The notes under the pieces: model-generated | Told to the model about the DNA's origin: nothing | Databases searched by the model: none | Seen by the model: only the letters and a program-made list of their open reading frames with translations | Program-made: the position numbers and the translations under genes | Sequence record: OR983334.1 | From: Escherichia phage 1-6bf | Reading direction: 5' to 3' (one strand) | Length of the DNA stretch: 64,000 nucleotides | Shown: piece after piece, positions 50,933 through 58,180 of the stretch | Layout: each line of letters opens with the position of its first letter | Position numbering within the stretch: the stretch's first letter is position 1

Positions 50933-51904
50933 ATGTCAATCTCCACAACGATCGTACCTCTTAACCTTCAACAGGATTTAGGGGAACAGAAGTTCTTAGG
51001 TCGTGGGTGTTTCGGTATCCACAACTACATGCAAGGCCAGTGTGTAAATGACATTAATGGTGAAGTTATCACGGAAGAAGGGCGCTATCGTCGCTTCAAC
51101 CGTGATATCAACTTGCAACTGGAGATGTTGAATTACTGGACTCACTCTTTTCATGGTCATGTTACATCTGATATTGAAAAGAATTTGGTTGAAACAGCAG
51201 ACATTATGAACTCCATGTCTTGCTATCGTGACGTATTTACGATCACTTCAGCGAATAGTGTTGCTGTCAACCTTCGTGAGCATCCAGCAGATCAGATCTT
51301 CACAGGACTTATGCTCTTTCGTAGTATTCTGGAAGGGCAATATCGTGGAATGGATTTCCTAGCAGAAGGAATTGAAGACAGGGAAGAGTGGCTGAAGCGT
51401 AAACGCATCGGCATCGCTCTAGTGTTAGCTGGGTTGGGTCGTGACTTCTTCGGTGGATGGTCTCAACGAGGAAGAGCTAATGGGAGTAGCGAAAGCACCT
51501 CTATTGTTATTAACAACAATATGTCAGCAGCAGCATTCCTTCCTTTGGTTGTAGACTCTGATGAATACACGAAGCAAGTATGGGTTCAAAACCCCTTCGG
51601 TGTTGGCGACAACGAGAATGGTTATGTTCGTAACCATAACCAAGATGCCTTACGAAGATTTGCTCGTGCTAAAGATCAAGACCCGGACGAGTATGAAACA
51701 ATGTCAGAGTGGTTAAGACTCTGGTCCAACTGTTATGGTCACAAACGTGAATCAATAGACGACAAGTTGGGAAACATTACAGTACAAAACTTTACATCCC
51801 GACTGATTCAAAGAACTGGAGCAGATTCCGGTCTTACTCTTGAAGAAGTTGGTAACACAATCTCATCTCTCTTTTCTGAACTAGTGGAGTATTACAATGA
51901 CTAA
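50933..51904 (+). CDS. hypothetical protein (operon with amidoligase genes)
   Basis: 323-aa ORF. Confidence 0.5.
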   Translation: MSISTTIVPLNLQQDLGEQKFLGRGCFGIHNYMQGQCVNDINGEVITEEGRYRRFNRDINLQLEMLNYWTHSFHGHVTSDIEKNLVETADIMNSMSCYRDVFTITSANSVAVNLREHPADQIFTGLMLFRSILEGQYRGMDFLAEGIEDREEWLKRKRIGIALVLAGLGRDFFGGWSQRGRANGSSESTSIVINNNMSAAAFLPLVVDSDEYTKQVWVQNPFGVGDNENGYVRNHNQDALRRFARAKDQDPDEYETMSEWLRLWSNCYGHKRESIDDKLGNITVQNFTSRLIQRTGADSGLTLEEVGNTISSLFSELVEYYND

Positions 51905-52703
51905 GCGCAAATTCCTCATCGGCTCTGACCCTGAAATGTTCGTTCGTACTAGCAATGGTATCATCACTTCTGTAGCCGGTTTATTAGGCTGCTCTAAGGA
52001 CGATAAAATCGCTCTGGCTAAGGATGTTCGTCTCCAAGAGGACAATGTACTGGCTGAGTTTGATATTGACCCACAGAGCGGTTTTGAAGCGTTTAACGAT
52101 AACATGCAACGTGGTATTGATCTCACCAATAATGTCCTGAACAAACTGGACATGGAAACAGCTCCTGGTGTTAGCTCTCACATCTTCACTGAAGAAGAGA
52201 TGAAGACCTTTAATGAATCAGCGTTCATCTTCGGGTGCACTCCTGATTTCAACGCCTTCACTGGTCAGAAAAACCCATCCCCGACTTCTCAGAATAAGGG
52301 ACTTCGTACTGCCGGTGGTCACGTACATCTTGGCGTAGTTGGTGCTTTGGATATCACTCTGCAAACTCAGATGATGCTTGGTGTGCTGTGTGACTACTTC
52401 CTATCCCTCCCAGCAGTAATTATGGACAAAGATACTCGCCGTAAAGAACTCTACGGTAAAGCATCTGCAATCCGTTATAAAGACTATGGTATTGAATACC
52501 GTTCTCTGTCTAACTTCTGGATTAGTGATCGTGAAAACCGTAAGTTTGTTTACGATCAGGTTGACAAGGTTGTTCAGCAATGTGATATGTCCACTCTGAT
52601 GGCATTGCACTCTCGCCTTCCGATTGAGAAGCTTCATGAAATCATTAACGGGAACAATGTTAAAGAAGCTGACCAGCAGATCAAACTCCTTCAGGTAGCA
52701 TAA
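51897..52703 (+). CDS. possible divergent amidoligase-like protein
   Basis: FLIGSDPEMFV and GGHVHLG motifs loosely resemble carboxylate-amine ligase signatures; ATGA overlap. Confidence 0.3.
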   Translation: MTKRKFLIGSDPEMFVRTSNGIITSVAGLLGCSKDDKIALAKDVRLQEDNVLAEFDIDPQSGFEAFNDNMQRGIDLTNNVLNKLDMETAPGVSSHIFTEEEMKTFNESAFIFGCTPDFNAFTGQKNPSPTSQNKGLRTAGGHVHLGVVGALDITLQTQMMLGVLCDYFLSLPAVIMDKDTRRKELYGKASAIRYKDYGIEYRSLSNFWISDRENRKFVYDQVDKVVQQCDMSTLMALHSRLPIEKLHEIINGNNVKEADQQIKLLQVA

Positions 52704-52712
52704 GAGGTTATC

Positions 52713-53330
52713 GTGAGCTTAGTAGCTGATTTTTCTCATTACTATAATGGTACATGGATTGCTAAACGAGCAGGTAATATCAACCTTCCATGTTTTGTGA
52801 TTGGTGTTGAGCAGAGCGGTAACTTCCGCAGTGATGACTTCTCTCACGAAGCAGAGCAGGCTCTGTACTTTGTTGTAGAGCAGTGGTACAAGAACGAGCA
52901 AGGGCATCTTCGAAACACTACGATGAATATCCCAGTGTTCGACCCAACCCTGATTCTTGAATCACCTGACGTTGGTTATCTGTTCCATAACGGTAACACT
53001 GTAAGCTGGACTCATATTAACCCTGTTCGCCAGAGAGCAAAGGGCTTAATGGGTAATAAGATTCGAAATGCTCCGGGTGTTGGTCGTGCTATCTCCGGAG
53101 AGATGGTTTACAGTCTGTTCAATCCTGAATTCGAAGGATTGGTTACTCGTTATATTTACATCAACCCTACAGATGGTAAGGTGCATTATAAAGGTGCACT
53201 GGTAGGACAAGTAGATCTGGAAGCACCTCGTGACTCTTACGGTCAGCAACCGATGCGACTTCTGGAACATTTTCATCACATTTCTGAAAACCTTAGCAAT
53301 TACAATATTACGTTGGTGGATTCGTTATGA
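52713..53330 (+). CDS. hypothetical protein
   Basis: 205 aa, GTG start with GAGG RBS. Confidence 0.45.
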   Translation: MSLVADFSHYYNGTWIAKRAGNINLPCFVIGVEQSGNFRSDDFSHEAEQALYFVVEQWYKNEQGHLRNTTMNIPVFDPTLILESPDVGYLFHNGNTVSWTHINPVRQRAKGLMGNKIRNAPGVGRAISGEMVYSLFNPEFEGLVTRYIYINPTDGKVHYKGALVGQVDLEAPRDSYGQQPMRLLEHFHHISENLSNYNITLVDSL

Positions 53331-54430
53331 CAACTGTAGCGCAAACTTTTGGATATCGAGAAGGTCGTTTAACTGAGGCGCATAGTTCAATTGCACTTCA
53401 GTGCGGTGTCGGTATTGAACTTGAACTCGAAGGTTCCGATCATATCGAAGCAGATATGTGGGATTGTACAGAGGATGGTTCCCTGCGTAATGGTTGTGAA
53501 ATGGTATGTTCACGACCTTACAACGGACAGGAGTTGTTAGACGCTATCAACAACCTGAGTGAAGCAGTAGCTGAATCGCACGCCGAGGGGACTTGGCGTT
53601 GCTCTACTCACGTTCATATGGATATGAGGGATGCTGATAGTAATATCCTCAAGAAAACCATTCTCGCTTGGACCTTCTACGAAAAGATGTTGTTCAAGTG
53701 CTCAGGCTACCATCGTTACCGTAGCAATTTCTGCCCTGCGTTTGCAGTGGTACAAGCACAGGTAATGAATGCCTCTGACGCATTTAACTACGATGGTGAA
53801 GAGTTCTTCAACCGTCTGGTTCGTTCATGGGATAAGTATACATCCCTGAACCTTCTGCCACTTGCCCAATACGGTTCGATTGAGTTCCGTATCAGCGAGC
53901 CTAAGTGGAAACGTGGTCAACTTCTCAATCTGGTTAACCGCTTCTTGATGCTGAAGAAGCTGGCTTTAGATAACGCAGATATGAGCAACGATCAGTTTGT
54001 TGAGCATTTAAATACTGTACGATTTGCCCCAATGCTTCCTTACCTTCCTCTGGATTACAATCTGGATGAATCGGATTTGCATTCAGGTTATTGTATGGCC
54101 CGTGATGTTTTGTATTGTCGTTCTCATGAAGTAGAACAGTCTGGTCGTATTCGTTTACGTCGAACCAACTCCAACGGAGATGTTCTTGTTGACTTGCGTC
54201 TTATGTCAGACTTCTATGGATTCCTTGGTTATGTCCGAGGGAACGCTAACAACTTGTATCAAGAGATTTTGGTTATGCTTCGTACAGCAGACCTATCTCA
54301 AGTAAGACACGCTCCAGAACAACGTATCCGTGCTATTTTTGACTTACTACGTGAGTCAGGTCACAGTGATAGCAATATCACAGGGTACATTCCAGACCAT
54401 CTGGAAAATCAGTTAGAACAAGCGCTGTAA
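53327..54430 (+). CDS. amidoligase-like (glutamine-synthetase-like carboxylate-amine ligase)
   Basis: GVGIELELEG and CSTHVHMD motifs resemble the phage/bacterial amidoligase family; ATGA overlap. Confidence 0.45.
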   Translation: MTTVAQTFGYREGRLTEAHSSIALQCGVGIELELEGSDHIEADMWDCTEDGSLRNGCEMVCSRPYNGQELLDAINNLSEAVAESHAEGTWRCSTHVHMDMRDADSNILKKTILAWTFYEKMLFKCSGYHRYRSNFCPAFAVVQAQVMNASDAFNYDGEEFFNRLVRSWDKYTSLNLLPLAQYGSIEFRISEPKWKRGQLLNLVNRFLMLKKLALDNADMSNDQFVEHLNTVRFAPMLPYLPLDYNLDESDLHSGYCMARDVLYCRSHEVEQSGRIRLRRTNSNGDVLVDLRLMSDFYGFLGYVRGNANNLYQEILVMLRTADLSQVRHAPEQRIRAIFDLLRESGHSDSNITGYIPDHLENQLEQAL

Positions 54431-54509
54431 TCAATGGGTGCCTCTGACAAAGGGGCACAATTTAAAGGTTAATTAGATGAAAGGGTTTACCCTTCAGGTG
54501 GATTAGAAA

Positions 54510-56540
54510 ATTTGTGGCATCGTATTAGCTGGCGGTAATCTGTCAAGCACTGATTTAGACGTATTCAACCAACTCTTTTATGCTGGAGTATTCCGAGGAC
54601 AACATTCCTCCGGTATCTTTGGTCAGCGTAAAAGCACTAAGGAAGTCTTCACTTATAAAGAAGCTCTTCCTTCTTTCGCATTCATCCTACAAGATGAGTA
54701 CAAGAAGCACACCACTGGTGAAACAGCTTACACTGTAGCACCTTCATGGATTGTTGGTCACAGTCGTCATGCAACGAAAGGTGCAGTTAACGCCAAGAAC
54801 GCCCATCCTTTCCAACATGGTAACATCACTCTGGTTCATAATGGAACCTTGATGGACCAAGATCTGTTACCTGACAGCAAAAGCTTCGAGGTAGACAGCG
54901 AGAACATCTGCCACTCTATTAACACTATCGGTGCAGCAGAGACTATTCAAAAGCTGGATGGTGCTTTCACCTTAATCTGGCATGATGCTTCTGATAACCG
55001 CCTTCATATCATTCGTAACGAAGAGCGTCCTTTCCACCTCGCACGTTGTAACAGAGATTGGTTTGGTGCTTCTGAAGAAGATATGTTGATGTGGATTCTG
55101 AAGCGTTCTAAGTCTCATAAGAACCGTATTGACGAGCATTTTGAATGTAAAGTTGGTACAGAGTATATCTTTGATATGTCAAACAACGGCATGACTCTGG
55201 TTGAAGAGGTCGCCCACGAGCTTCCGGTTTTTACGGTAGCCAATCGTTGGGGCAGTTATTACTCGAACAACTACAGCCAAAGCAACTATCAAAGTTCCTC
55301 AAAAAGCAGTACAAGCAATCCCTACGACACGAAGCCGGGAGTGACAGCGGCAGATGTTCGTCGAAGAAACGCAGTGGTAAGTCAAAACAAAATCGCAAGT
55401 GATCGAAACATTGATATTCGCCGCGATATGACTGTGGAAATCACTCCGCATGAGTTTGTTCCTTATGCAACTGCTGGTGCTGTTCCTTCTCGTGGTAAGA
55501 TGATTGGTTATATCTACGATGAGAAATCTCAAGAGTATATCGAAGGTGATGTCCATAACGTAGATATTAAGGCTTATCAGGATGCCCTGAAAGACCCTAA
55601 AATTGTTTACCGTGGGACAGTATCCTGTATCTCCGAAGTTAATGCTATGGTTCGCTTAGTGATCACAGCAGGTCGTTTTGTTGACCCATCTCTGGAGAAA
55701 AAGGAGCCTGAGTCTACTACTGCTGACTTTGATGATGATATCCCTTTTGACATGAATGATAGTTTCGTCAACAAGAATGGCGTTACTATCACTCGTAAAT
55801 TCTGGGAAGCACATTCTCATGGTGATTGTGGTGGTTGTGACAAACACATTGATTGGAAGGATGCACCTAAAGCAGTCTTCGCATATCAGTGCTACTGGCA
55901 TCCTGAATGTCTGGAAGGTTTGACTAAACCTAAAGAGGAAGAAGAGGAGGAGACTCCTATTGGTGTTTGTGAAATCTGTGGTGAAGTTAAAACAGAGAAT
56001 GAGTTCGATGATGAACTTAGTCGTCTTCGCGGTGAAGATATCTGTAAAGCCTGCGCTGTAGAGGTAAAGAAGAAAGTATCTAATGCTACGATCAAAGATG
56101 GTTATGTATGGATTAAAGCAACAGATACAACAAACGCCCGTCGTCCTGAGTTTGCTTTACGTGTAACTGAAGATATGATTGGTCGTATGACTGTATTACC
56201 TTCCTCAGCGAAACAGACAGGCATCACTCTGGAGGATGTTGTTGATGCTTATGTTGAGAAACGTAGCAACAGTATTTTTGCAATCTCAACTAAGCCAAAA
56301 AAGGAGGAACCTGCTGAGAAAGCAGGTGTGTTTCCTGAATCACGAACAACTCTCCGCAAAACTGTTGTCAGCTTCGACGGAAACCGAAGCACTGACTTCA
56401 CCAAAGCCATGTGGTCAACCCTTGGATACTGCTCAGAGTGTTTTAAGCAGATTCCGTGGCGCGATGCTGAAAGTTGTACGCTTGGTTCTATGAATCAAGT
56501 TTATTGTAATTCTCCTAAATGTTCATTGAATAGAGGTTAA
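54510..56540 (+). CDS. class-II glutamine amidotransferase (Ntn) domain protein with C-terminal Cys-rich zinc-ribbon region; non-canonical start
   Basis: CGIVLAGG, GHSRHATKG, NAHPF, HNG motifs in order; catalytic Cys preceded only by AAA-ATT after in-frame TAG; AGGTGGA SD 7 nt upstream of ATT. Confidence 0.7.
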   Translation: MCGIVLAGGNLSSTDLDVFNQLFYAGVFRGQHSSGIFGQRKSTKEVFTYKEALPSFAFILQDEYKKHTTGETAYTVAPSWIVGHSRHATKGAVNAKNAHPFQHGNITLVHNGTLMDQDLLPDSKSFEVDSENICHSINTIGAAETIQKLDGAFTLIWHDASDNRLHIIRNEERPFHLARCNRDWFGASEEDMLMWILKRSKSHKNRIDEHFECKVGTEYIFDMSNNGMTLVEEVAHELPVFTVANRWGSYYSNNYSQSNYQSSSKSSTSNPYDTKPGVTAADVRRRNAVVSQNKIASDRNIDIRRDMTVEITPHEFVPYATAGAVPSRGKMIGYIYDEKSQEYIEGDVHNVDIKAYQDALKDPKIVYRGTVSCISEVNAMVRLVITAGRFVDPSLEKKEPESTTADFDDDIPFDMNDSFVNKNGVTITRKFWEAHSHGDCGGCDKHIDWKDAPKAVFAYQCYWHPECLEGLTKPKEEEEEETPIGVCEICGEVKTENEFDDELSRLRGEDICKACAVEVKKKVSNATIKDGYVWIKATDTTNARRPEFALRVTEDMIGRMTVLPSSAKQTGITLEDVVDAYVEKRSNSIFAISTKPKKEEPAEKAGVFPESRTTLRKTVVSFDGNRSTDFTKAMWSTLGYCSECFKQIPWRDAESCTLGSMNQVYCNSPKCSLNRG

Positions 56541-56542
56541 GT

Positions 56543-56776
56543 ATGGAAATTCGTAAGATGATGCTGGATAACGTTGTAACTACTCGACGTATCCCGATGA
56601 CGAGCACAGGATGTGATAACCTTCGTGCAATCCAAAAGTGGATGCAAGCTGGTATTGGTCAAGTACTTGAAACACAGGTTGAGGTTCCTTTCCCAACGGT
56701 GATCAACAACGTGCTTGCTGATTATGTAAAAATCAAAGGCATTAAGGTAGAACCTCATGTCAAATCTGGTTCCTAA
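56543..56776 (+). CDS. small protein within modification operon
   Basis: 77-aa ORF. Confidence 0.4.
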   Translation: MEIRKMMLDNVVTTRRIPMTSTGCDNLRAIQKWMQAGIGQVLETQVEVPFPTVINNVLADYVKIKGIKVEPHVKSGS

Positions 56777-56981
56777 GAAACCAAAGATCACTCTCCTACA
56801 GTATTATATGGGAGTTCATATCGAATTAGTAACGGAGCAGCGAAAGCTGTATCCGTTCGCTTTCGGTCTGATTGATGCACCATCCGATGAAGTAGAGAAC
56901 GATGCGTTCAACGACTACTTCGAAATTGAAGCTCAGATTCAAAAAACTCGTAACGAAATTCTTAAACTTAAAGGTATCTAA
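56757..56981 (+). CDS. small protein within modification operon
   Basis: 74-aa ORF overlapping neighbours. Confidence 0.4.
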   Translation: MSNLVPKKPKITLLQYYMGVHIELVTEQRKLYPFAFGLIDAPSDEVENDAFNDYFEIEAQIQKTRNEILKLKGI

Positions 56982-56983
56982 CA

Positions 56984-58180
56984 ATGACTACTCGTATCCG
57001 TGTTCTTCCTTATGGCCCTTCCGATTCAGTTCGTGAACTTACTTCTGCAATTAATACTAAGATTCAGGAACTCCGCTTAAATGCTAACGTAATGTCTTTG
57101 GTATCAGAAGGCTCTCGTTATCGTTCTCGAGCTGGTGATATTGTTGTAAACTATGGCAACCGCCGTTATGATGCTTCTTTCTTTGGTGGTGCAACCGTAT
57201 TGAACCCTGTTGAAGCTCTGAACCGAGCGGCTAACAAGATTGCAGCGTTCAACGCATTGCGTTTGGCTGAAGTTAAGACTGTTGAATACACTATCGATCA
57301 CGAATTAGCTCTGAACTGGAACCGAACCGAAATTGTTTATGAACGTGCAACCTTAACTGGTCACTCTGGTGAAGGTATCACCGTTCGTCTTCCGGGAGAA
57401 GGTGTTGCAAGTGCTCCTCTGTATACGAAAGGTATTCAAGGCCCACGTCGTGAATGGCGTGTTCATGTGTTTGAAGGTGTTATCACTTACGTTCAGAAGA
57501 AGATTCGTCGTAATGGATATCGTGAACTGGAAAGCTACCGTGAAGATATTCGTAACCATCACACTGGTTGGGTTTATTCTAACGCATTCACTGAAGCTCC
57601 TCCTGATCAAGTTCTGATTCAAGCTCACAAAGCTGTATCTGCTCTGGGCTTAAACTTCGGTGCTGTTGATCTGATTAGTAAAGGGAATAACGCTTGGGTT
57701 CTGGAAGTAAATACAGCTCCGGGACTGACTGGTACAACTCTGGAGACTTACACTCACAATATCGTTGAGTTTGTTAAGAGCTTCTCTGGTGTTGAACCTG
57801 ACTATCGTGTTGCTTACCAACTGCCTGTTGAAGAAGTGGAAGAAGAATTTGCTGAATCAGCAGATGATGAGAACTTTGCATTAACAGCTGAGCCAGTTGC
57901 TGAAGAATCTTCGGAACCTGTTCCTGAAACGATGCAAGTTGAAGAGCAAGGGTTAGAGATCACCCCGATCACCCGTCGTAATCTGCGTCGTGGTTATTAC
58001 ATCGCTAACATCAAGCATCCTGAAAACGGTTCAACTGTAGCAAGTAACGTAATTGTTTTCTTCTGCGGTCGTAACTTCTACCGCTCTGGCTGGAATGCTC
58101 CAATTAGTGATCGTCAGCTTGGTCGTGTGTTGCAGATTAATAGCATTACCCTGAATGATGGCACTGTTGTAAACTACTAA
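56984..58180 (+). CDS. ATP-grasp ligase (RimK-like)
   Basis: GHSGEGI ... EWRVHVFEG ... GAVDLI ... VLEVNTAPGLTG ATP-grasp signatures; acidic C-terminal segment. Confidence 0.75.
   Translation: MTTRIRVLPYGPSDSVRELTSAINTKIQELRLNANVMSLVSEGSRYRSRAGDIVVNYGNRRYDASFFGGATVLNPVEALNRAANKIAAFNALRLAEVKTVEYTIDHELALNWNRTEIVYERATLTGHSGEGITVRLPGEGVASAPLYTKGIQGPRREWRVHVFEGVITYVQKKIRRNGYRELESYREDIRNHHTGWVYSNAFTEAPPDQVLIQAHKAVSALGLNFGAVDLISKGNNAWVLEVNTAPGLTGTTLETYTHNIVEFVKSFSGVEPDYRVAYQLPVEEVEEEFAESADDENFALTAEPVAEESSEPVPETMQVEEQGLEITPITRRNLRRGYYIANIKHPENGSTVASNVIVFFCGRNFYRSGWNAPISDRQLGRVLQINSITLNDGTVVNY

Follow-up and report, generated by a model that had tools for sequence, protein, structure and literature searches.

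Probable AUU initiation of a class-II amidotransferase gene in Kuravirus coliphages and the recurrence of such starts with a hairpin-abutted Shine-Dalgarno sequence

Introduction

To our knowledge, very few bacterial AUU start codons have a demonstrated role, the textbook case being that of infC in Escherichia coli. The present study concerns an AUU codon in Escherichia phage 1-6bf (sequence record OR983334.1, of which a stretch of 64,000 nucleotides, referred to as the window, was analysed), where it directly precedes the codon for the catalytic cysteine of a glutamine amidotransferase of the class-II, or N-terminal nucleophile (Ntn), type and most probably serves as the start of that gene.

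As an initiation codon, AUU is 6–8 times less efficient than AUG (PMC3592434), and mRNAs starting with AUU compete poorly in vitro under nutrient limitation and in the presence of guanosine tetraphosphate (ppGpp; PMC5499595). At the thrS–infC junction (UAA-GGU-AUU), a reporter study attributed about half of the translation to re-initiation and about half to de novo initiation (PMC3592434).

The AUU start examined here is an existing database annotation rather than a new claim. In phage phiEco32 (EU330206, RefSeq NC_010324), phi32_83 ('glutamine amidotransferase'; ABY52884 / YP_001671828) is a coding sequence (CDS) of 2031 nucleotides (nt) whose first codon is the same ATT, an annotation that dates from 2008, and the corresponding CDSs of SU10 (KM044272; SU10_085) and KarlSchell_Bas89 (Bas89_0080) are likewise annotated from ATT. 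These are the same gene with 97–98% DNA identity and the same start, which is supported there by annotation only; a full-text search pairing the ATT start codon with amidotransferase, which did not extend to the original phiEco32 papers, returned no experiment or discussion behind it. Because phiEco32, SU10 and the BASEL phages already carry the ATT start in GenBank, the instance itself is less novel than a preliminary description of the window, made from its sequence, had implied.

Results

The probable start of the amidotransferase gene is an AUU codon

The true gene most likely comprises 676 codons from ATT 54510, with initiation at AUU (a probability of roughly 85% in our estimate). The elements of the locus are as follows.

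54477–54506, plus strand: micro open reading frame (micro-ORF) ATG AAA GGG TTT ACC CTT CAG GTG GAT TAG, i.e., nine codons (MKGFTLQVD) and a stop, in frame with the amidotransferase gene
54478–54496, plus strand: leader hairpin predicted by RNA folding, with core AAGGG (54481–54485), loop TTTA and CCCTT (54490–54494), its 3′ end abutting the Shine-Dalgarno (SD) sequence
54496–54502, plus strand: SD-like AGGTGGA, 7 nt before ATT, with a duplex energy of –5.9 kcal/mol
54503–54509, plus strand: 7-nt A-rich spacer TTAGAAA, including the in-frame TAG (54504–54506)
54510–54512, plus strand: ATT, the inferred translation start decoded as formylmethionine (fMet), annotated as CDS start in the three phages named above and invariant in all leader-keeping relatives
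54510–56540, plus strand: full amidotransferase CDS as translated, 676 codons and stop, homologue of phiEco32 gp83
54513–54515, plus strand: TGT, catalytic N-terminal Cys of the Ntn glutaminase domain
54513–55250, plus strand: class-II (Ntn) glutaminase domain
54849–54854, plus strand: TTG ATG, the first canonical in-frame starts

When positions 54200–54800 were read and 54477–56540 translated, the layout given in the preliminary description was matched base for base, including the micro-ORF, the AGGTGGA 7 nt upstream, and the in-frame order ATG (54477–54479), TAG, AAA (54507–54509), ATT and TGT. The frame from ATT 54510 runs uninterrupted for 677 codons and ends with TAA at 56538–56540. Downstream of TGT, no ATG, GTG or TTG occurs in frame before TTG 54849, which is followed by ATG 54852. 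No canonical start is therefore able to give the conserved N-terminus: a stop lies two codons upstream, and the next start is found 113 codons downstream, inside the catalytic domain.

No other large ORF of the window has such a long start-less N-terminal stretch: the amidotransferase ORF runs for 114 codons between the upstream stop and its first canonical start, the others for 1–18 codons. Based on the window's own codon usage, the probability of 113 codons without ATG, GTG or TTG is 0.008. These triplets occur as codons 0 times among the first 113 amidotransferase codons (54513–54848) vs. 22 times among the other 563. The scarcity is probably not a conserved avoidance, since codon 11 or 12 is an internal ATG in phage SU7 and the more distant Aeromonas phage BUCT695.

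The N-terminal codons and the leader are conserved in different ways

The window belongs to a Kuravirus (phiEco32-like coliphage), and the region matches Escherichia phage 1-6af at 100% identity and phiEco32, SU10 and approximately 65 other Kuravirus genomes at 97–98%. In 99 independent phage records, identity over the 69 nt at 54462–54530 is at least 98.5%, and the same leader region was also found in five IMG/VR contigs and seven metagenome contigs from independent projects. Over the codons at 54513–54848, comparison of the window with SU7 or KarlSchell yielded a proportion of differing synonymous sites (pS) of 0.68–0.73 and a ratio of non-synonymous to synonymous change (dN/dS) of 0.07–0.08, which shows that translation covers the codons preceding the first canonical start as well.

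These same pairs, which differ at approximately 70% of synonymous sites, are identical at 43 of the 43 positions that lead up to the Cys codon, and the alignment of the intergenic sequence further upstream of the leader contains both substitutions and indels. The leader is under selection at the nucleotide level.

BUCT695 belongs to a different family (Grimontviridae), shares 52% amino-acid identity with the window's product in the amidotransferase domain, and is not its sister in the tree. It nevertheless keeps a 46-nt block, ATTAGATGAAAGGGTT[T/A]ACCCTTCAGG[T/C]GGATTAGAAAATTTGTGG, with two changes and with unalignable flanks. One of these changes, the only one in the leader hairpin, is located in its loop, and the other at the SD base that does not pair with the anti-SD. 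Because a near-identical leader is present in Kuravirus and in the non-sister BUCT695, the sequences suggest that a leader/start cassette may move by recombination. Lineages starting with AUG lie between Kuravirus and BUCT695 in the tree, despite the near-identical 46-nt leaders of the latter two.

The protein is predicted to be a class-II glutaminase with Cys as its first residue

According to Pfam, residues 76–193 of the product correspond to GATase_6, GATase_7 and GATase_4. A profile built from seven relatives matched PurF, GlmS and AsnB in the PDB, unlike a single-sequence phmmer search of the PDB, which gave no match. An AlphaFold (AF2) model of Cys1 to residue 246, built with database homologues, reached a mean predicted local distance difference test (pLDDT) score of 92 and a predicted template modelling (pTM) score of 0.91, with strand 1 beginning at residue 2. 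Foldseek matched this model in the PDB to the GlmS glutaminase domain (E = 2e-13, template modelling (TM) score 0.68–0.70), PurF, AsnB and EgtC.

The N-terminal C-G-I-V is invariant across relatives, and R28-G29, H83.R85.A87-T88.G90, H109-N110-G111 and D128-S129 are invariant in 27 sequences and align to the PurF and GlmS motifs. The N-terminal domain is thus a class-II glutaminase domain of the Ntn type, intact and requiring its nucleophile at position 1, and the need for such a first Cys, which the preliminary description had put forward, was borne out by fold and motifs. The TGT codon directly follows the sole usable start, and removal of fMet would leave Cys as the first residue.

AUU and AUC starts recur across the family in a near-constant layout

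Relatives of the gene were searched by the internal motifs VGHNR[HY]ATxG and NAHPFxH..., a search hence blind to the start codon, in IMG/VR, metagenomes, genomes and cultured phages, and the codon before Cys was read for each locus. This resulted in 72 lineage representatives, mostly clustered at 75% identity with later loci added singly (L-numbers below are lineage or locus labels). Among them, 55 start with AUG, 12 with AUU or AUC, and five with GUG or UUG. The AUU/AUC lineages are scattered over the neighbour-joining tree, each with AUG nearest neighbours; for example, L098 (ATC) and its neighbour L100 (ATG) are 76% identical, and L101 (ATT) and L099 (ATG) 66%. None of the AUU/AUC lineages has a canonical start between the upstream in-frame stop and Cys, and in-frame stops before the start number three in L037 and two in L035, while L130 carries TAG TAA in tandem.

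Aligned on the start codon, the AUU/AUC genes display a hairpin of 5–7 base pairs (bp) whose 3′ end abuts a strong GGAGGA-type SD, followed by a 7-nt spacer. With one automatic definition of the SD edge and without phylogenetic correction, a hairpin within 2 nt of the SD was found in 10 of 12 AUU/AUC genes vs. four of 55 AUG genes (Fisher p = 2e-7), a spacing of exactly 7 nt in nine of 12 vs. 11 of 55 (Fisher p = 5e-4), and a median SD duplex energy of –7.1 vs. –6.0 kcal/mol (Mann-Whitney p = 0.04). Intergenic space was considered as a confounder, and none of the seven AUG genes with a gap of at least 35 nt (by crude gap estimates) has an abutting hairpin.

The SD-spacer-start string GG[A/U/C]GGAUUAGAAAAUUUGUGG is common to Kuravirus, BUCT695, L078, L142 and L150, and L130 has GAGAGGAUUAGUAAAUUUGCGG. 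BUCT695 has C in place of the T of the AGGTGGA SD, and L078, L142 and L150 have A, so that the variation falls on the base that is mismatched to the anti-SD; the spacer is identical in all four. By contrast, the hairpin stems at the same place in the string-sharing lineages differ (AAGGG/CCCUU, AAGGGA/UCCCUU, CCUGA/UCAGG, CAAGCU/AGCUUG and GUGACAG/CUGUCAC), and the stem is therefore conserved as structure and not as sequence. One version of the module, GGAGGAUUAGAAAAUUUGUGG, recurs in lineages that are very distant from each other and whose hairpins have five or six different sequences. In the window, the hairpin can be extended to 7 bp (UGAA(A)GGG/CCCUUCA).

A predictive test was made on database proteins called downstream of the Cys motif, whose DNA was retrieved. 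The nine informative cases revealed seven ATT starts, one TTG and one ATG, and added five new AUU lineages, four of which have the full module of hairpin, SD and 7-nt spacing. As far as we could find, neither the frequency of AUU/AUC starts in this phage family (about one-sixth of lineages, above GUG and UUG together) nor the close link between such starts and a strong SD that is abutted by a hairpin and spaced at 7 nt has been reported.

Some loci of the survey deserve separate mention. In the contig of Logan run SRR34434937 (L144, around positions 390–415), the protein is 82% identical to that of L130, but the leader differs and an in-frame GTG lies three codons before ATT (GTG ACT AAA ATT TGT), so that a four-residue propeptide is possible in that lineage only. 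L093 and L131 have ATT ATT TGT, of which only the second ATT gives Met-Cys with the right SD spacing, and the tandem may be coincidental. One lineage (L030 / L071) starts with ATG TGC TGT (Met-Cys-Cys-Gly-Ile-Val) and would have two consecutive N-terminal Cys residues after Met removal. The family is almost absent from cellular genomes. Herbiconiux daphne CPCC 203386 scaffolds 207, 320 and 514 (L128, L129 and L130) carry three distinct amidotransferase genes of the phage type, whose starts are TTG, GTG and ATT; the encoded proteins are 48–59% identical to the coliphage protein, and the presence of these genes on short scaffolds of an actinobacterial assembly looks like phage contamination.

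Many annotations leave out the codon for the catalytic cysteine

In 1-6af, the CDS is annotated from ATG 54852 (562 amino acids), although the region is identical to that of the window. The CDS of SU7 is annotated from an internal Met 10 codons in (Met11), that of BUCT695 (L008) 11 codons in (Met12), and that of Vibrio phage VPp1 54 codons in, and all four truncated annotations lose the catalytic Cys. Most of the 99 leader-bearing phage records have no feature over the leader, and about one-fifth of the family's database proteins are truncated similarly. The Cys is cut off in many records because gene callers disallow ATT starts.

Other sequence elements of the leader and its surroundings

One further structure was predicted upstream of the leader.

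54438–54458, plus strand: G+C-rich hairpin GTGCCTCT-gacaa-AGGGGCAC, predicted by RNA folding, between the amidoligase stop (54428–54430) and the leader

This hairpin is retained in the alignments with SU7 (GCGCTCT...AGGGCGC) and KarlSchell with both arms changed. No U-tract follows it, and a terminator or stabiliser role is only putative.

A fold sequestering the SD (GGUUUACC / GGUGGAUU), which is the minimum free energy structure, was considered as the alternative state of a switch; both BUCT695 substitutions break it, and a two-state switch was not adopted. An Rfam scan of 54300–54700 at a permissive E-value returned chance matches only, well below gathering scores, and no match to a glutamine riboswitch. 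No second copy of the leader motif was found in the window, and the exact leader was found in IMG/VR only in Kuravirus-like contigs.

With respect to transcription, the amidotransferase gene is part of the early region, for which distant sigma-70 promoters are responsible. A candidate local promoter, TTTAAAGGT at 54461, resembles the TTTAAATGT that precedes the gene in Grimontviridae relatives and, more loosely, the tAATGTATA of the gp36 motif (published as tAATGTATAtA; PMC4281155). Neither motif was enriched or clearly matched in the window. A TTTAAA[T/G]GT motif occurs approximately 20–45 nt upstream of the gene in the Grimontviridae relatives (the L020, L022, L024, L025 and L008 regions) and is degenerate in Kuravirus (54461–54476). 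Compared with L022, the Kuravirus leader resembles an insertion of approximately 30 nt between two ATTAGA repeats. On the minus strand, a sigma-70-like promoter (54546–54519; TTGACA, 16-nt spacer, TACGAT; 10 of 12 matches) directed antisense into the leader is not conserved in SU7 and is probably due to chance.

The C-terminal extension and the gene neighbourhood

The C-terminal approximately 430 residues (55300–56540) have no Pfam match and contain several CxxC...CxxC clusters, e.g., HGDCGGCDKH...CYWHPEC, CEICGEV...CKAC and CSECFKQ...CNSPKC. The consensus of 27 homologues likewise ends in CxxC...CxxC, and this pattern suggests that the extension may contain conserved zinc-ribbon-like modules. 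The neighbourhood (51897–58180) comprises a COOH-NH2 ligase (PF14395), an unassigned ORF of 205 amino acids, an Amidoligase_2 (PF12224), the Ntn amidotransferase, two small ORFs and an ATP-grasp protein (RimK/Ddl-like). Neighbourhoods of relatives add GGACT/GGCT-like and Peptidase_C26 genes.

Discussion

Weighing the possible routes to the N-terminus

Initiation at AUU from the AGGTGGA SD, one of several options in the preliminary description, is the reading favoured by the evidence, i.e., by selection on the N-terminus, the invariant leader and the recurring layout. The same codon could also be reached mainly by termination and re-initiation, with the micro-ORF being translated, the hairpin melted, and ribosomes that stop at UAG 54504 restarting 3 nt further on at AUU, such that the micro-ORF sets the yield. 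The micro-ORF AUG and stop are indeed conserved in all Gordonclarkvirinae and in BUCT695, the UAG-AAA-AUU order mirrors the UAA-GGU-AUU at which about half of infC translation is re-initiation (PMC3592434), and L101 has both an upstream ORF that ends 4 nt before AUU and an AUG mini-ORF that spans the hairpin. However, L078, L130, L142 and L150 share the SD-spacer-ATT without an AUG micro-ORF, and the AAAGG that the preliminary description had proposed as SD of the micro-ORF, although present in the window, is not conserved in BUCT695, which otherwise retains the leader. The in-frame stop is likewise real, but is no signal in itself because a stop triplet is equally common upstream of AUG starts (within 9 nt of the start in 42 of 56 AUG-start relatives vs. 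15 of 17 AUU/AUC-start relatives, p = 0.33). We therefore doubt that re-initiation is the main route, and consider it at most a contributor specific to the Kuravirus clade and compatible with AUU initiation.

Propeptides occur in some Ntn amidotransferases, e.g., PurF of Bacillus subtilis, and wherever the micro-ORF is present, it shares the reading frame of the gene. On that basis, read-through of the UAG from AUG 54477 could yield MKGFTLQVDxKI-Cys, whose 12-residue propeptide would be removed autocatalytically, as the preliminary description had also suggested. This reading is not needed, since a well-placed SD serves AUU, and much contradicts it. ARAGORN detected no tRNA gene, either in the window or in the remaining 12.8 kb of the 1-6af genome, and hence no suppressor tRNA; there is no Rfam match at the locus; TAG ends ordinary genes in the window; and both changes in the BUCT695 micro-ORF (MKGLTLQAD) are non-synonymous. 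Homologues with the same ribosome-binding region lack the upstream AUG (L078, as well as L142 and L150) or have TAG TAA (L130) or two to three in-frame stops (L035, L037), and AUG-start relatives encode Met-Cys without a propeptide. Read-through is accordingly very improbable. The same low standing applies to a disrupted N-terminus, in which only a truncated protein without glutaminase activity would be made from TTG 54849 or ATG 54852. In 1-6af and many other records, this is where the automatic annotation begins, and the SU10 study, in which the amidotransferase was detected by mass spectrometry with nine peptides and classed as early, lists an expected mass of 63.8 kDa that equals the truncated form (PMC4281155). 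Such a product would, however, begin mid-domain, the catalytic motifs and Cys are intact and fold as an Ntn domain in the model, and the 112 codons supposed to be untranslated combine the low dN/dS reported above with saturated synonymous change. Finally, a sequencing or assembly error at TAG or ATT, or a genetic code with TAG as a sense codon, has nothing in its favour except the unusual arrangement and can for practical purposes be set aside. The arrangement is identical in the approximately 99 phage records and in the IMG/VR and metagenome contigs, and, regarding recoding, TAA ends 24 of the 25 large ORFs of the window, none of which is interrupted by TAG, while TAG terminates several small genes. 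The sequencing error or genuine disruption that had been raised at the outset is thus excluded by some 100 invariant genomes, a dN/dS of approximately 0.07 and the detection of the SU10 protein.

Several points nevertheless weigh against AUU initiation as laid out here, or against the role given to the hairpin. The whole Kuravirus leader is invariant, including loop and spacer, which is more than hairpin, SD and AUU need and hints at an extra constraint from a protein or RNA partner or from the micro-ORF. The lineages sharing the SD-spacer-ATT string are not fully independent of each other. Stronger out-of-frame start codons flank AUU, i.e., UUG at +2 (54512) and GUG at +4 (54514), and part of the initiation near AUU may be unproductive. 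Next to the 63.8 kDa listed for SU10, no N-terminal peptide was reported for that protein (PMC4281155), and in one reporter study a hairpin just before the SD was roughly neutral for an AUG gene (PMC3592434).

A possible mechanism for initiation at AUU

If AUU is indeed the start, the 30S subunit would bind the SD AGGUGGA, with the hairpin ending exactly at its 5′ edge, and the A-rich spacer would set AUU 54510 in the P site, where the initiator fMet-tRNA would read it. Cys is an allowed penultimate residue for methionine aminopeptidase, which, together with deformylase, would strip fMet and expose the Cys1 nucleophile. The weak AUU would be read with the help of the strong, structurally 'clamped' SD, and the hairpin might fix or stabilise the SD register such that AUU, and not the out-of-frame UUG or GUG, is placed in the P site. 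In Kuravirus, some re-initiation by ribosomes that have just finished the micro-ORF, 3 nt before AUU, may contribute, as at the thrS–infC junction. The weak codon could keep synthesis of a glutamine-consuming enzyme low and sensitive to initiation factor 3 (IF3), ppGpp and the growth or nutrient state, as for infC.

More tentatively, and with the odds rather against it, the hairpin-clamped SD may be a dedicated device for reliable and frame-accurate non-canonical initiation under IF3, ppGpp and growth-state control, in which AUG was replaced by AUU or AUC at least about ten times. If this were true, production of a glutamine-consuming enzyme would be tied to the physiological state of the host.

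Significance

In terms of annotation, the gene should read 676 codons from ATT 54510, and many records, such as those of 1-6af, SU7, BUCT695 and VPp1, miss the catalytic Cys. Moreover, a single gene family in which AUU/AUC starts have arisen many times in a near-constant geometry offers a natural comparative and easily testable system for asking which features allow a non-canonical start to be used and what selects for it. The results also suggest that start-codon-blind surveys would recover more such phage genes.

Comparison with known systems

The protein resembles the glutaminase domains of GlmS, PurF, AsnB and EgtC in its fold, in the N-terminal Cys at the start of strand 1, and in the RG, H.R.AT.G, HNG and D(S/T)E motifs. 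Unlike these, it represents a stand-alone phage family with a long C-terminal CxxC extension instead of a known synthase domain, and its gene adjoins amidoligase, COOH-NH2 ligase and ATP-grasp genes. As in B. subtilis PurF, Cys1 must be exposed after translation, but, in contrast to the propeptide type of B. subtilis PurF and GltB, a stop interrupts the frame from the canonical start to Cys in the phage gene.

With regard to its start, the locus has the sequence features of a functional AUU start of the infC or pcnB type, i.e., no canonical start, a conserved AUU, and an SD at functional spacing. Like E. coli infC, it combines a selected AUU with an SD-dependent initiation region, and in both cases a stop lies 3 nt before AUU (UAA GGU AUU in infC, UAG AAA AUU in the phage gene). 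Sensitivity to IF3 proofreading is expected for both, in the phage gene by analogy (PMC3592434, PMC5499595). Nevertheless, the AUU of infC senses an autoregulatory loop of its own product, whereas the phage product is an amidotransferase for which no regulator is known, and, unlike in infC, the SD-abutting hairpin of the phage gene is part of a recurrent phage layout.

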